From NCBI GenBank assembly GCA_021432655.1, contig MU271592.1, positions 1 through 41,010 on the forward strand: a stretch of 41,010 nt of DNA, written 5' to 3'. The notes beneath the pieces are model-generated. The model saw only the letters and a list, made by a program, of their open reading frames with translations, was not told the DNA's origin and ran no database searches. The translations under genes and the position numbers were made by a program. The stretch comes from Atractiella rhizophila. Taxonomy: Eukaryota. Positions 12,216 to 21,892 of this stretch are shown in pieces. Numbering within the stretch: position 1 is the stretch's first letter; every line of letters starts with the position of its first letter.

Positions 12216-13340
12216 ACGATGTCATGACTACGGTTGGTACAATGGGTGGTTGGTTCTTAACCAGAGCACACGTGACAACCTATTCTGGTCGCATATTCGA
12301 GACAGTATTGGGTGTCTGGGAAATAGGTGAGCACGAAGGTGACACGATATTCTTCTCTCTGTGATTTGCCTGCAGAAAATTCCTCGCCGAGTCGTCAGAA
12401 AGTTGATAATACAGGCAGAGTTGTGATTAGTTCATCTAGACAGTGACACTTGGCGGCTGTTTCAGCTCAAGCAGTGATCCCCGCTTGTCAGAGGAGGTTC
12501 TGTGTCCAAGTTTGACATTGGGTCATGTTTTAGATGCAGAGAGATCACCTTAAAGCCTGTGACGAGAACTCCGTCGAATATTTTCAGCTCCTCTGCCTCC
12601 AATTCGCAGAGGGAGTGGGAAGGACACGTTAACTCCAGCCAATACCATTAACATTGGCATTGGAATCCTCGTCAGCATTTCACCCTGTTTGATGGGGTAA
12701 CTCAATGTAATGAGCTCGGCTATCCGAATTCGAAAGAGACCTGTGCATCAAGCATGCACCTTGCAAACTTATGTTTGGGAGTGCCGCTTCTCTCCCCCTC
12801 TCCACCGAAAACGGTGAACAAGGAAAGATGTCACTCACTTCAGGATATTGTCCTTTCCCAAGATTAAGGCTGGTCGGTCCTCAGCATTTCAGCGCCGAAA
12901 AGTTAATTGATAGTCTCTGGTTTACGTCAAACTTCTAAATTTCGAGCCTGCACGCTGGAAGAGAAAGCACTCGTCGGAGCAGGAAAGATTGAAATGCGAG
13001 AGAGCTTTGATGTGAGCTGCGACCAATCGGAAATATCAGGCCGCATTTTAGTCTGGGAATTGGAAGCTTCGCGGCAAAGGAAACAATTGTTCCGAGTCGT
13101 GCTGATTCGTCCACATGTTTACGGGATGCTTGCCTGTAGCTTACGTTTCCTCGAGTTCGGGGTCGAGTTCGGGTTTTAAACTTCCTTGAACTTGTCAACA
13201 ACACCCGCATTGTATTGCACAAATTTCCTGTCCTTATATAACGCGACCGCGTCGAACCGTTGATGTGCCGACAGACTCGTCAGCAGAGGGGCAAGCTGCT
13301 AACCCTCCCGCAGTTGCATCCTGTCCACTGAGCAGACATT

Positions 13341-13348
13341 TATAAATA
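13341..13348 (+). promoter_or_regulatory. TATA box of MFS copy 1
   Basis: TATAAATA about 80 nt upstream of ATG 13428. Confidence 0.45.
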
Positions 13349-13427
13349 TTGAGCACCTCAAACCAAGCTGCATTCTTCTTCTTCCCATTGTCCCCCCCTT
13401 ATCCACGATACCCGATCACTAGCAAAC

Positions 13428-16097
13428 ATGATCGACGAAGCTGCCACTCTCAAGGATGAGTCCCTCCGTGCCTCAGAGGACAACAATGAAAAGTTACCGC
13501 AATCTCCATCATCTGAAAAGGACGAGAAACAGTTGAAGAAAGATGCTGAAGATGGCGAGGAAGCGAAGGATGGTGAAGAAAATAAAAAGAAAGCAGTCGA
13601 CGATCCAGATTCCAAAGTCCTTCATGGATTTCAGCTCTGGGTCCGTCCTTCCACGCATTCCATGTTTGAAAGAAAAAGCATCCTGAAAGTATGACAGGCT
13701 GTTTACTTTTCTCTCCTCTTCTCCATTTTCCTCGTTGCACTCGATCAAACGATTCTTGCGCCTGCTCTGCCAGTCATCGTCTCTAAATTCAACGCTCTCA
13801 ATGAAATCGGATGGGTATCCTCTGCGTACTTCCTGTGAGCTGGTGTATTTTCTACCATGAAACATGAACTGACCTCGCGTTGATTCAAGGACTCAAGTTC
13901 GTTGGTTTCTTTCACTCATCAGGAAAATGTCCCCTAAAGGGATGTGCTCAGAGTGGCCTTATGCTCTTTTGGGGAACCGTACTGAACGTTTGTGATCGTA
14001 AATGGATCTTCATCAGCTCCGTCATTATTTTCGAAATCGGATCGCTGCTATGTGGTGTATCCACTACTGTCAATGTTCGTTCCCCCTTGCAGTTCTGGTG
14101 ACAAGTTTGACGGATTCATAGCTACTCATCTTTGGACGAGCAGTGGCCGGTGTAGGAGCAGCAGGTATGCGTGCTGTTTCCTCCTTCCCGAGTTCTAACT
14201 GGCCCATTTGATAGCAATATTCGTCTCTATTCTATCGATTATCACAGAGATCACGACACTTGAGCAGCGACCAGTTTTCTTTGGTCGGTCATTTCTTGAT
14301 TTGCTTTTTCTTGCTGACGTACCTCACTATAGGCGGATTTGGAGGTGTTTTTGGGCACGTATTTTCCCTCACTTTTGGAATGTCCATTGGATAACGCGGT
14401 GCGATTCCTCAGGTTATCGAGTATCATTGGCCCGTTGATCGGAGGCGCGTTCACTGACCATGTTAGCTGGAGATGGTGCTTTTACAGCATGTTTTTTCCT
14501 CTTTATTTCCATGATTGCTCAAGCTTACGCTTTTCCCAGTGTAAGCCTTTCATCCGTCTGAAGGAAAACTCAACATTAACTTATTCCAGCAATCTCCGGT
14601 TGGTGCTCTGAGTATTGCGGTTATCGTCGTCATCATCAAGAATGCTGCCGCACCAGCGCTTTCACCAGAAATGGCGGACCGGACCAGGCGTAGGATGGGA
14701 TGGCTCCTTGGTGTCTTTGGAGCCAGAGACGTTTCCGCGACCAACTTCTTCTTCCGATTGATGACACTTGACTGGGTTGGATCCACTCTGCTTCTTGGAG
14801 GTAATGTTTCTGGAACACCGCTAAGGAGTTGAATTGACGAGAGAGCCAGCCGTCACTTGCTTGTTACTCGCTCTTCAATGGGTGCGCCGCTTCTTTACAT
14901 TCAGTGAGATGCATATTAATGAAGGTGAACGGTAGGGTGGCAACGATTACCCCTGGAATGACGGTCGTGTCATCGGTTGCTTTGTAGGTTCGGGGTGATT
15001 CTTGCAGTACTCATCCCGTGTAAGTCTGCTTCACTTGTGTATGCAAGCGATCCGAGCTGGCAACTAATGGTCTGAGTAGACGAGTACTACATCGCTGGAC
15101 CGCAGCGCGTTCTCCCTCTCAACTTTTTTACCCACCGCACACAGGTCGCCTCCGGAGTGACGAGCTTCTTCGTCTTTTTTGCGTTGTGCGTCCTATTTTT
15201 TCAGGACGGCCTTGCCGAAGCGTTGCTGACGAGGGTGTTAGTATTGTGTTCTGTTATTGGATTCCGATCAACTGGCAGGCGGCGAAGAATCACTCTGCAA
15301 CCAAGTCCGGTCTCGACCTGCTCCCTTTCCTCTGCGGCGTCATTGTGTTCACTGCTATTACGGGCATTATTGTTAAGAAAACCGGAAACTTTTACTGGAT
15401 CATTGCTTCAGGGCCTCCAGTTATCTGTATCGCTTCCGGCTTGTTCTTTACAATAGATGAGGTAAGCCAAATGCTCCAAGCTAGCAGCAACAGACTTAAT
15501 TGTGGGCGGGACTAGCATGACGATTCCAAGTTGTACGGCTTTCAGGTGCTCCTAGCATACGGCGTCGGCTCAGCCCTCCAAAACGTGCTCATCTCCGTTC
15601 AAGCGAATACCAAAGATCCCAGAGACCTCAACTTATTCTCAGCTTGCTTTGCTTTCCTTCAACGTCTAGGAACCACCGTTGGAATTTCTATCGCAGCAAC
15701 AATATTTGGCAATAAGCTTTCGACCAACCTGGACCACATTGCGCGAGAAGGAACTTATGATCCCAGCGTTTTAGCTGCCGTCGAGCTTTCAGTGCAAGCT
15801 ATTTACACTGTTGTTCCCGTGGAGCAGAGGCCTGCTATTGTCCACGAGTATGTCAACGCGCTAAGCTACGTCTATCTACTAGGTGCGTTGTTAAAACTCG
15901 TTAGGATCTGACGGACTCATTGAGAGCAGGCATTGGAGCCGGAGGCGTTGCCTTTATATCCGCGCTCTGCATCAACAGCGTCAAGTTTGTGTTCATTATT
16001 CCTTTTGGTTGTGCATTAACCTATTTCTTGCAGTATCAAGAAGAAAAACGAAAAACCTAAAGATGACGAAAAAGCCGCAATGCCAATTGATATTTAG
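13428..16097 (+). CDS. MFS drug:H+ antiporter, DHA2 (14-TM) family, copy 1; two apparent 1-nt frameshifts
   Basis: [87 protein letters not shown]; ends ...AMPIDI*. Frame breaks at ~14597 and ~14995. Confidence 0.88.
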
Positions 16098-16569
16098 ACC
16101 GCTAACAGTCAGTAAAGATTCAGTTTTTTTGTCCTCAGTATTATAATGTATTTTTCAGTATCTGTTATGGGCAAACGCAACAATTCGTCAATACATCCGC
16201 ACTCAAAACGATGAAATCCTGGATGCATTTCTTCGAATAATGCATATTTTTCGCTAGCACGATCTTTTTTTCATTCTTAAAGGATAAACCATATAGAACC
16301 TAGTCGCACTCATTTAGAATCGCCTTCCTTTCTCCCAACAATGCCTTTTAATTTCCCAGTGGACATCTGCCAATACTTGAGCAGCGACATAGACTTGCCA
16401 GAAAACCTTGGTTGAAGCAGATTCATCCCACTAATACTCACTGGGCTAGTAGAGTGCACGGCTGACTGTGCTAAGCAGAAGAGCATATCGGATAAGGCGC
16501 CGTAATTGTGGTCACGTTCTCACAGGTACTACAAGCCAATACTGAAGAACAATTTGGTTGAATTGAACA

Positions 16570-17379: not shown

Positions 17380-18633
17380 TTGGACAGAGTATTCGGTCAG
17401 CTCGATAAAGCTGTCTTCGTTCTGGGAAGTAGGTGCGCACGGAGTTGACGCTATATTCTTCACACCACACTCCGAGTTTCTTTGCGATTTACCTACGGAA
17501 AATTCCGAAGCCAGTCATCAGAAATATTGAACATATATGGAGATATGTGCAAGCCACTCTGTTGTTCATCTAGACAGTGCCACTTGGCAGCTAAAAGTGG
17601 TATTTCAGCTCATGAATTGATCCCCTCTTGATATCAAAGGAGGCTCTGTGTCCAGGCGTTGGAGAATAGTTTATATTAGATGCAGAGGGAAATCTTCTTA
17701 TGGCAGTGTAAGAACAGAGGCTCCCCTCTTAGCCATGCTTCTTCGTCGAATATTTTCAGCTCCTCTCAGCAATCTGCGCAGAGGAAGTCGGAGATGACAG
17801 ATCAATTCTTGCTGATACCCATTGACATTTGGATTCTTCCGTCAGCATTCGACCCTGTTCGACTGGTTTGTTCAATGTAATATTCAGATAGTGGAATTCG
17901 AAAGAGACTTATCCCAAGCTCGCCATCGCAGTGTCGGGAGCGCCGCTTCTATCTCCTCTCCTACTGAAAATGGTGAACAATGAAAAATATTACTACTTCA
18001 GCGCACTGTCTGTTGTGAGTTCACAAGATTACCGACACAGGTTGCTCAGCATTGTTTTCCAGGGCCGAAAAGCCAATTAGTAGTCCATACTTTAGATCAA
18101 ACTTCCAAATTGCAAGCCTGCAAGCTGGAAGAGAAGCGCGAGCAGGAAAGATTCGGCGATGTTATTTTAAGTAGTTTCGAGCGAGAGCTTTGATGAGCAT
18201 GACAGCTCTCTGACCCAGCGGAAATAAAGCCGCATCGTAGACCAGGGGCGTTCAAAGCGTCGCAGCAAGGGAAACCATTGTTCCGAGTAGTGCTTATTTC
18301 TGCCACATGTTTACGGGATGCTTGCAAGAAGCTTACGTATCCTCGACTTCGGGGTTAAAACTTCCTTGAACTTGTCAAAATACCTCACTGTATTGCACAA
18401 ATTTCCTGATTCCTTATATAATGTAACCGCGTTATATAACGCAACCGCGTCGAACCATTAACTGGTGCCGACAGACTCGTCAGTACAGAGGCAAGCTCCG
18501 GCAGTCAGGTCCTTTTGACTGAGCAGACATAAATATTGGGGCACTTCTGAGCAAGCTAGCATATCATTCTTCTAGCATATCATTCTTCTTCCAATTGTTT
18601 CCCCTTATCCACGATACCCCATCGCGAGCGAAC
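17380..18633 (+). repeat. Diverged duplicate of the YSA1-MFS intergenic/promoter region (~12290-13427)
   Basis: Collinear shared blocks, e.g. GTTCATCTAGACAGTG, TCGAATATTTTCAGCTCCTCT, CCACATGTTTACGGGATGCTTGC, AACTTCCTTGAACTTGTCAA. Confidence 0.85.
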
Positions 18634-19028
18634 ATGATCGACGAAGCTGCCACTCTCAAAGATGAGCCCCTCCGTGCCTCAGAGGATAACAATGAGAAGT
18701 TACCGCAATCCCCCTCATCTGAAAAGGACGAGAAACAGTTGAAGAACGACACCGAAGATGTCGATGGAGCGAAGGATAGCGGAGAAGAAAAGAAAAAGAA
18801 AGCAGTCGACGATCCAGATTCCAAAGTTCTTCATGGATTTCAGCTCTGGGTCCGTCCTTCTACTCCTTCCATGTTTGAGTGAAAAGCATCCTAAAAGTTT
18901 GACAGGCTGTTTACTTTTCTCTCCTCTTCTCCATTTTCCTCGTGCATTAACCTATTTCTTGCAGTATCAAGAAGAAAAACGAAAAACCTAAAGATGACGA
19001 AAAAGCCGCAATGCCAATAGATATTTAG
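18634..19028 (+). pseudogene. MFS copy 2 with ~2.3 kb internal deletion
   Basis: Exon 1 and the start of exon 2 ([12 protein letters not shown]) are joined at TCGT (18940-18943) directly to the last intron and last exon. Confidence 0.88.
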
Positions 19029-19739
19029 ACCCCTAACAGTCAGTAAAGATTCAGTTTTTTTTTGTCCTTAGTATCATAATGTATTTTTCAGTTATCTGTT
19101 ATGGGCAAACAGAACAATTCGTCAATACATCCGCACTCAAAACGATGAAATCCTGGATGCATTTCTTTGTGCGATGCATTGGTTTGTTGACAGCACCGTC
19201 ATTTCTTCAGTTCTTAAAGGACACGGATGGACCACTTACAACATAGTCGCACCTGCTTAGAGTTACCTCTCTCCTCCCTTTGACTCTGCAAACAATGCTT
19301 TCTAATTCTTCCCATAGACATCTGCCTTATACATCGGACAACGAGATAGTTTCCAGTAACCAGCACATTGATCCTGCATCCCCCTAACAGTAATGATCAC
19401 TAGTCCACTGGCTTAATCGCACAGCTGACTGAGCCAAGGGGAAGAGCATGTTATCTTGGTGCCATCAAGTATGGACATGCTGTCACCGATACTAAAAGTC
19501 AATAGTGCAGAACAATGGAGGTCTTCTTTTACACTACGCCTATTTACACTATGCCTAACATTCTGCACATTCTCCCTACAGGACTCTCCCTATTCCTAAC
19601 GACGCAGATCGCTGCTTCCTTCCAAGTCTGCAACTTCACAAATCCAATTCCACCCCCTTTACCTTCGGCTAATAAGTAACCCCCACTCGTTACTCTGCCA
19701 ATGAGATCCAATGCACTTTCAGAATCCACTTCAATCACT
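18940..19739 (+). repeat. Near-identical direct repeat of ~21281-22088 (MFS last exon, 3' region and POP1 C-terminal coding sequence)
   Basis: Only scattered SNPs and small indels differ. The POP1 tail (...GRVTSGGYLLAEGKGG...LGIV*) is repeated at 19544-19739 up to the gap. Confidence 0.92.
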
Positions 19740-20067
19740 NNNNNNNNNNNNNNNNNNNNNNNNNNNNNNNNNNNNNNNNNNNNNNNNNNNNNNNNNNNNN
19801 NNNNNNNNNNNNNNNNNNNNNNNNNNNNNNNNNNNNNNNNNNNNNNNNNNNNNNNNNNNNNNNNNNNNNNNNNNNNNNNNNNNNNNNNNNNNNNNNNNNN
19901 NNNNNNNNNNNNNNNNNNNNNNNNNNNNNNNNNNNNNNNNNNNNNNNNNNNNNNNNNNNNNNNNNNNNNNNNNNNNNNNNNNNNNNNNNNNNNNNNNNNN
20001 NNNNNNNNNNNNNNNNNNNNNNNNNNNNNNNNNNNNNNNNNNNNNNNNNNNNNNNNNNNNNNNNNNN
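19740..20067. other. Assembly gap
   Basis: Run of N. Confidence 1.
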
Positions 20068-21370
20068 TCTGCTTCTCGGAGGTAATGTTTCTGGGACACT
20101 GCTAAGGAGTTGAATTGACAAGAGACTCAGGAGTTACTTGCCTGTTACTCGCTCTTCAATGGGTGCGCAGCTTTTTTACACTCAGTCGAATGCATATTAA
20201 CGAAGTTCAACCTCAGGGTGGCAATGATTACCCGTGGAACGACGGTCGTGTCATCGGCTGCTGTGTCGGTTCTGGGGTGATTCTTGCGGTACTCATCCCG
20301 TGTAAGTTTGCTTCCCTTGTGTATACATGCGAGCTGGGAACTAAGCATCTGAGTAGACGAGTACTACATCGCTGGACCCCAGCGAGTTATCCCTCTCAAC
20401 TTCTTCACGCACCGAACACAGGTGGCATCTGGAGTGACTAGCTTTTTCGTGTTTTTGGCCTTGTGTGTCCTATTTTCTTGCGGAGCCTTTTTGAAGTGAT
20501 GCTGACGAGGATGCTAGCATCGTGTTCTGTTATTGGATTCCGATCAACTGGCAGGCGGCAAAGAACCACTCTGCAACCAAGTCCGGTCTCGACCTGCTCC
20601 CTTTCCTCTGCGGCGTCATTGTGTTCTCTGCTATTACGGGCATTCTCGTTAAGAAAACCGGAAACTTTTACTGGATTATCGCTTCAGGTCCTCCAGTTGT
20701 CTGTATCGCTTCCGGCTTGTTTTTCACAATCGATGAGGTCAGATAAATCCAAGGCAGTAGTACCAGACTTAACCGTGGTGGGACTAGCATGACGACTCCA
20801 AGTTGTACGGCTTTCAGGTGCTCTTAGCGTACGGCCTCGGTTCAGCCCTCCAAAACGTGCTCATCTCCGTTCAAGCGAATACCAAAGATCCCAGAGACCT
20901 CAATTTATTCTCAGCTTGCTTTGCTTTCCTTCAACGCCTGGGAACCACTGTCGGCGTTTCTATCGCAGCAACAATATTTGGGAATAAGCTTTCGGCCAAC
21001 CTGGATCACATTGCGCGGGAAGGAACTTATGATCCCAGCGTTTTAGCTGCCGTCGAGCTTTCAGTGCAAGCTATTTACACTGTTGTTCCCGTGGAACAGA
21101 GGCCTGCTATTGTCCACGAGTATGTCAACGCGCTGAGCTACGTCTATCTACTAGGTGCGTCTTTATAACTCCTTAAGAACCGACGGCCTCAATTGAGAAT
21201 AGGCATTGGCGCGGGAGGCGTTGCCTTTATATCCGCGCTTTGCATCAATAGCGTCAAGTTTGTGTTCATTATTCCCTTTGGTCGTGCATTAACCTATTTC
21301 TTGCAGTATCAAGAAGAAAAACGAAAAACCTAAAGATGACGAAAAAGCCGCAATGCCAATAGATATTTAG
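20068..21370 (+). CDS. MFS DHA2 transporter, 3' half of paralog (5' part missing)
   Basis: Collinear with ~14787-16097 with the same introns; frame intact at VGSGVIL; ends AMPIDI*. Confidence 0.85.
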
Positions 21371-21892
21371 ACGGCTAACAGTCAGTAAAGATTCAGTTTT
21401 TTTTTGTCCTCAGTATCATAATGTATTTTTCAGTTATCTGTTATGGGCAAACAGAACAATTCGTCAATACATCCGCACTCAAAACGATGAAATCCTTGAT
21501 GCATTTCTTTGTGCGATGCATCGGTTTGTTGACAGCACCGTCATTTCTTCAGTTCTTAAAGGACACGGATGGACCACTTACAACATAGTCGCACTCGCTT
21601 AGAGTTACCTCTCTCCTCCCTTTGACTCTGCAAACAATGCTTTATAATTCTTCCCCATAGACATCTGCCATATACATCGGACATCGAGATAGTTTCCAGT
21701 AACCAGCACATTGATCCTGCATCCCCCTAACAGTAATGATCACTAGTCCACTGGCTTACTAGTAATCGCACAGCTGACTGAGCCAAGGGGAAGAGCATGT
21801 TATCTTGGTGCCATCAAGTATGGACATGCTGCCACCGATACTAAAAGTCAATAGTGCAGAACAATGGAGGTCTTCTTTTACACTATGCCTAT

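Follow-up and report, generated by a model that had tools for sequence, protein, structure and literature searches.

One-nucleotide exons are rarely described. Among the reports we found, those backed by transcripts or cDNA belong to two plant families, one Fusarium P450 family and 13 genes of Coprinopsis cinerea. For the single-nucleotide exon of Arabidopsis APC11, proof came from cDNA sequences obtained after mutation of the base (Guo & Liu 2015, PMC4674806), and the one-base exons of APC11 and VPS55 have been followed across land plants (PMC8831610). In fungi, Nelson & Syed (2026, PMC12940212) describe a one-nucleotide exon with SRA read support in the CYP621A P450 genes of Fusarium and argue that G is the favoured letter for such an exon; the long-read annotation of Coprinopsis cinerea has an entry reading "1 nt, 13 exons in 13 genes" (PMC12230235). 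Here we analyse a complete 41,010-nt scaffold (the window) of the root-associated fungus Atractiella rhizophila, a member of the Pucciniomycotina, in which the T at position 14540 is very probably a genuine one-nucleotide exon, lying between two ordinary short introns of a nuclear, spliceosomally processed gene. It encodes an MFS transporter, probably one of the DHA2 type (drug:H+ antiporter-2, EmrB/QacA type). A first-pass annotation made from the letters alone had proposed this exon and called the phenomenon very rarely documented; the rarity stands, with the correction that one-nucleotide exons of fungi are also in print (PMC12940212, PMC12230235).

We compared positions 13400-16250 with four public runs (X20, X1, X21 and X2), taken as contigs; X2 is recorded as RNA, X20 has no recorded kind, and X1 was taken as RNA by guess. 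Of 20 joints, the 15 considered here comprise 13 simple ones and two composite ones, the latter having letters between their two sides. These simple joints span 47-60 nucleotides (nt) and comprise 12 GT..AG introns and one GC..AG intron (14353>14412); five simple joints of the transporter gene are also present in X2, which speaks for an RNA origin of the joints. The contigs of X20, at a depth of about 180-200, skip every intron, and one of 1382 nt on 14596-16250 has 0 letters other than those of the assembly apart from one inserted G.

In the assembly the codons ...TGG AGA TGG TGC TTT TAC close at 14485 and are followed by A14486, and the letters from 14590 on are CAATCTCCGG, or in a longer reading CAATCTCCGGTTGG. 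Three contigs from two runs, namely two forms in X20 and one in X1, cross this junction, and they read ...TTTTACA-T-CAATCT(C/T/A)-CCGGTTGG, which translates as Tyr-Ile-Asn-Leu-Pro-Val. The RNA thus has a T between A14486 and C14590. The X1 contig contains the entire 74-nt upstream exon and 117 nt downstream. Position 14487 is G and position 14589 is G, and the T adjoins neither exon edge in the DNA; because G follows A14486 and G precedes C14590, the A-T-C order is unattainable by any single cut. The mature RNA therefore holds a base contiguous with neither block of the genomic DNA, which is what a one-nucleotide exon is, and we infer that this base is copied from T14540. With such an exon, cDNA over the junction would be TACATCAAT, and precisely the junction k-mer for which the first-pass annotation had proposed to search is carried by these RNA-type contigs, in both forms of X20 and in the single one of X1.

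Table 1. Coordinates of the features at the transporter locus of Atractiella rhizophila (positions in the 41,010-nt window; a slash marks an exon-intron boundary)
Feature	Position	Strand	Description and basis
MFS/DHA2-type transporter coding region	13428..16097	+	ATG 13428, TAG 16095-16097; RNA joints and built model
7-nt exon	13890..13896	+	GACTCAA, part of Thr-Gln; composite joint 13835>13947; FLTQSG in public model
GC..AG intron, 58 nt	14355..14412	+	tgg/GCACGT...CTCAG; joint 14353>14412 in X20 and X21
74-nt exon	14413..14486	+	encodes (G) and 24 residues, plus the A that opens the Ile codon; covered by X20 and X1 contigs
Putative upstream intron, 53 nt	14487..14539	+	GC..AG, aca/GCATGT ... 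CTTAC ... TTTTCCCAG/t, phase 1; sequence, absent from RNA contigs
Very probable one-nucleotide exon T	14540..14540	+	middle base of Ile codon A/T/C; RNA and splice-site setting
Putative downstream intron, 49 nt	14541..14589	+	GT..AG, t/GTAAGC ... ATTAAC ... TTATTCCAG/c, phase 2; sequence and RNA
Next exon	14590..14800	+	211 nt in assembly, 212 in RNA; starts with C (third Ile base), then AAT CTn CCG GTT
X20 joint, form 1	14486>14596	+	TCAATCTC between; depth 107.8
X20 joint, form 2	14486>14595	+	TCAATCT between; depth 89.5
X1 joint	14486>14596	+	TCAATCTA between; depth 3.9
Assembly one base short, Leu codon	14595..14596	+	third base of Leu codon; RNA CTC, CTT or CTA before CCG
Assembly one base short, G run	14991..14992	+	GGGG vs GGGGG; G inserted behind 14991 in X20, X1, X21 and X2
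3'-untranslated-region intron, 51 nt	16108-16158	+	GT-AG; joint in X20 and RNA run X2

The genomic setting of the T agrees with two separate splicing events. T14540 is the sole base in 14487-14589 preceded by AG and followed by GT or GC, so the skipped DNA does contain a base flanked by an acceptor AG and a donor, and the letters agree with the earlier proposal of two back-to-back introns (53 nt and 49 nt) parted by this base. The sizes had been called normal, and both halves fall within the range of the gene's simple introns supported by RNA (47-60 nt, 13 introns), whereas a single intron would measure 103 nt. When the interior of the 103-nt stretch was shuffled, a site AG-T-GTnnG(T/C) with both halves of 45-62 nt arose in 86 of 200,000 shuffles. 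Each flanking intron is workable alone in size, donor and branch-like motif. The GCATGT donor of the upstream intron retains the +5 G, a letter shared by 16 of the gene's 17 donors, and branch-like motifs (motif matches only) are present as CTTAC upstream and (A)TTAAC downstream. The upstream intron has no separate joint of its own, and its 3' end would lie at 14539. A GC donor for it, as had been suggested, is plausible; the gene has a second GC..AG intron with a joint of its own in two runs (Table 1). An origin of the pair by duplication of one intron into the other is unsupported, since their local alignment score of 12 was reached by 918 of 2000 shuffles.

The reading frame bears on the same junction. 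The A-T-C join made on the assembly as it stands gives C AAT CTC CGG TTG GTG CTC TGA and so a stop, and the long downstream open frame of the assembly is CAA TCT CCG GTT.... With the A-T-C join and an N at both of the extra bases backed by RNA (Table 1), the frame is open from ATG to TAG and the product of the RNA-based model is 609 amino acids (aa) long. Five other joins were tested with and without an extra base at 14595. Three of them, namely a single GC..AG intron and retention of either half, break the frame in either setting, and two, which use a GT donor at 14491, are open in one setting each and are excluded by the RNA, in which the AGC letters that they would keep are missing. The first-pass annotation had held that only the A-T-C join restores Ile-Asn-Leu. 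On paper this is not so, because a join of GT14491 to AG14589 with the extra base gives Y-S-I-N-L-P; the claim holds insofar as the RNA excludes that alternative.

The RNA-based product reads WRWCFYINLP at the junction. For a motif census we searched with the paralog protein, obtained 150 representatives and examined the 75 of 450-700 aa. The pattern W[RKQ][WYF]xFxxNxP is present in 54 of the 75 homologs, none of which (0/54) has an extra residue, and WRWCFYINLP, which the first-pass annotation had given as carried by DHA2 transporters here, is the variant seen most often, with exact matches in 29/75. The product also fits the conserved WRWxFxINLP of the fungal relatives with the same spacing, a stretch that we take, with the first-pass annotation, to mark DHA2 transporters in particular. 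Against Pfam MFS_1 (PF07690) the public protein model of the gene (P0151) scores 86 bits (cut-off 33.4, E 3.1e-24) and thus belongs to that family, and the translation of the 74-nt exon matches profile positions 132-155 with E 1.5e-5, which is below the Pfam cut-off. The best NCBIfam match of P0151 is TIGR00711 (DHA2), with E 1.2e-22 and 80.4 bits against a curated cut-off of 230.2, where the profile is bacterial and the query is a faulty model. A crude hydropathy scan, which is no proper topology prediction, showed 13 peaks in the RNA-based model against 12 in P0151, where fourteen spans are expected of DHA2. A homolog search with the exon after the junction returned 307 candidates, none of which scored.

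For this gene we propose that the pre-mRNA would lose a 53-nt GC-AG intron and a 49-nt GT-AG intron flanking the single T, both of the ordinary U2 type, so that the Ile codon of WRWCFY-I-NLP would be built as A, T and C from three exons. Each short intron would most likely be recognised on its own, probably by intron definition. The two introns would be removed stepwise, one after the other, because two spliceosomes cannot assemble 1 nt apart, and either order would leave working signals, ...CCCAG/T-CAAT or ACA-T/GTAAGC. Sequential removal is the model of Guo & Liu for APC11 (PMC4674806), and for APC11 and VPS55 stepwise removal under intron definition is likewise proposed (PMC4674806, PMC8831610). 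The plant exons resemble the A. rhizophila case further in that the cDNA base is contiguous with neither exon and lies flanked by AG and GT within the "intron", and in that the public annotation was in error (PMC4674806, PMC8831610). They differ in having much longer introns (A333 within a 422-nt stretch) and mutational proof, whereas the A. rhizophila exon is known from sequence and RNA contigs.

The Fusarium genes are similar in more respects. CYP621A too is a nuclear fungal gene, in which one base between two short introns supplies the central position of a codon within a conserved motif; its joint "intron" reaches about double the normal length, automatic gene models did not cope with it, and public RNA reads give support (PMC12940212). 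In CYP621A, an ascomycete family, the exon letter is G (AG-G-GT) with a GT-AG intron on either side, and 20+ orthologs share the layout (PMC12940212); in A. rhizophila the base is T, the upstream intron GC-AG and the host a member of the Pucciniomycotina, and these three traits make the case distinctive. T14540 does not fit the idea, as argued in that report, that G is favoured. Coprinopsis cinerea is likewise a basidiomycete with intron-dense genes, in which leaving out ultra-short exons breaks gene models, and from its annotation the comparison is one of counts alone (PMC12230235). Fungal stwintrons resemble the A. rhizophila site in that a single intervening stretch undergoes two consecutive splicing reactions. 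Their inner intron splits the donor, branch site or acceptor of the outer one and nothing of an exon stays behind, whereas here the introns lie side by side and one base is kept. The T remains in the RNA and the introns abut and do not nest, and the site is not a stwintron. The A. rhizophila case adds an RNA-supported example in a distant fungal lineage.

The assembly is one base short at two places of the gene (Table 1). It had been noticed before that the codons after the junction need one extra C; the assembly does lack a base there, and each of the three RNA forms has one more, which is C, T or A and in every case yields Leu, a pattern resembling inherited synonymous variants at a genuine codon position. 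At 14991 assembly and RNA differ in homopolymer length, as they do at 14595/96 when the CTC-reading RNA form is compared, and the paralog protein (P0001) reads through the 14991 region. Most likely, we infer, both missing bases are one-base consensus errors of the assembly, in a gene that is in all likelihood intact and expressed. One-base consensus faults in coding exons matter for anyone calling pseudogenes in this assembly.

The public model, P0151, has 574 aa and is named "MFS general substrate transporter". A homolog search with a downstream exon led to one protein, a partial hypothetical protein of A. rhizophila, whose 90% cluster includes P0151 from the same contig. Judging its splice points from the protein, P0151 jumps from about 14358 to 14590; it lacks the 74-nt exon and omits 27 residues including WRWCFYINL, and near 14991 it omits another 12 residues that the protein of the paralog keeps. 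Because it skips this coding sequence, both one-base faults are avoided and its frame stays open. In the crude hydropathy scan the two omissions take away two hydrophobic segments. The public 574-aa model is wrong, and the one-base exon was missed.

A tandem copy of the gene (copy 2) lies downstream and aligns only with 12315-13735 and 14787-16553; between the two aligned parts its middle is replaced by a run of 328 N (19740-20067). The region matching the junction is indeed missing from the assembly, as had been reported, and with the middle of copy 2 in the gap the paralog cannot be used as a check on the junction. Copy 2 (17421-21865) is in pieces. Its 5' part stops within exon 2 at about 18943, and the stretch 18934-19516, which is 76% like the 3' end of the gene (16003-16553), is followed by the 328 N and then by the 3' half at 85% identity, an arrangement that looks like a repeat-induced misassembly.

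Several points weigh against taking T14540 as an exon of the gene as assembled. Neither run with the T joint (X20, X1) is recorded as RNA, and X21 and X2, which have no contig over 14486-14596, are uninformative either way. Contigs cannot reveal rare isoforms, part-spliced intermediates or constitutive use, and the genomic letters of 14487-14596 come from the assembly alone. Assembly and RNA disagree in at least three places at the locus (the base at 14595/96, the G at 14991, and A13896 against G). The only exon-1 contig of X20 bears copy-2 variants (at least 11 substitutions and a 3-nt insertion in 13400-13640), and the two junction forms of X20 are distinguished by 14446, 14455 and the Leu codon, so which copy or allele stands behind each contig is uncertain. 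A metagenome scan for related genomic loci gave, from 433 pattern matches, one locus (L001), which is no true relative; as an ortholog it was rejected after tblastn returned a spurious 40% match with stops.

These disagreements give some room to an explanation in which the assembled copy is a pseudogene or dead allele with two true deletions and the RNA comes from a near-identical, intact copy or allele; on this view the one-base exon would be demonstrated in the latter and extrapolated to the assembled one. The two expressed forms in X20, its copy-2-type contig on exon 1, the RNA G against the assembly A at the last base of the 7-nt exon, and the position of the middle of copy 2 in an assembly gap all speak for it. 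The long X20 contig on 14596-16250 speaks against it, being identical to the assembly save for the extra G where the assembled copy 2 is just 85% alike, and so does the nature of the two losses, which at 14991, and at 14595/96 against the CTC form, are single-letter run-length changes typical of consensus errors. The G at 14991 is moreover present in all four runs, other strains included, and we regard this explanation as unlikely. The same losses make a third one nearby conceivable, and with it a single GC-AG intron of 103 or 104 nt from whose edge the assembly lost a T (for example CCAG/T CAAT), the inner AG-T-GTAAGC being coincidental. Losing a T before C14590 or after A14486 would not, however, be a slip in a homopolymer, as at least the loss at 14991 is; the inner site is rare among the shuffles, and an intron of 103 nt would be about twice as long as every one of the 13 simple introns. 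A single intron with a lost T is accordingly very unlikely.

A different donor, the GT at 14491, could be used either with a single intron 14491-14589 (Y-S-I-N-L-P, given the extra base) or as GT14491..AG14539, T and GT14541..AG14589 (Y-S-I-Q-S-P). Both variants have an open 610-aa frame on paper, and the second is in frame on the uncorrected assembly and needs no GC donor. Their transcripts would read TACAGCAT joined to T or CAAT, whereas A14486 is where all three RNA contigs depart from the genome, and the RNA lacks AGCAT; both variants would also add a residue seen in none of the 54 motif-fitting homologs, which leaves this donor highly improbable. Finally, the assembled DNA might be right throughout, with the T, the third base of the Leu codon and the G at 14991 all added by insertional RNA editing. 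The T lies in a perfect splice-site setting in the DNA, the three forms differ in the Leu base (C, T or A) in the manner of inherited synonymous variants, and we know of no case of insertional editing of a nuclear fungal mRNA. We consider editing barely credible.

We put forward a broader proposition more tentatively, giving it somewhat less than even credence: that the one-base exon, with its pyrimidine base and the GC donor upstream, is spliced in constitutively and shared by both tandem copies and by other strains, and that intron-dense basidiomycetes far from the mushrooms, here the Pucciniomycotina, possess such exons as a regular class. If true, gene finders would systematically miss one-base exons, which would be hidden behind "frameshifted" or exon-skipping models, and such an exon would need neither G as its letter nor a GT donor.

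The gene as modelled from RNA has 18 exons and 17 short introns, the intron of the 3' untranslated region counted in. The 7-nt exon is flanked by two 55-nt introns, 13835-13889 and 13897-13951. At 13896, its last base, contigs of X20, X1 and X21 have G (GACTCAG) and the assembly has A; because of this difference the alignment gives an odd TG..TG joint with an "A" between. The A/G difference may reflect distinct copies or alleles, or else an erroneous base. The joint 14353>14412 can equally be cut one position further right. GC donors in two of 17 introns are a high share for a single gene. The intron of the 3' untranslated region starts 10 nt past the stop codon.

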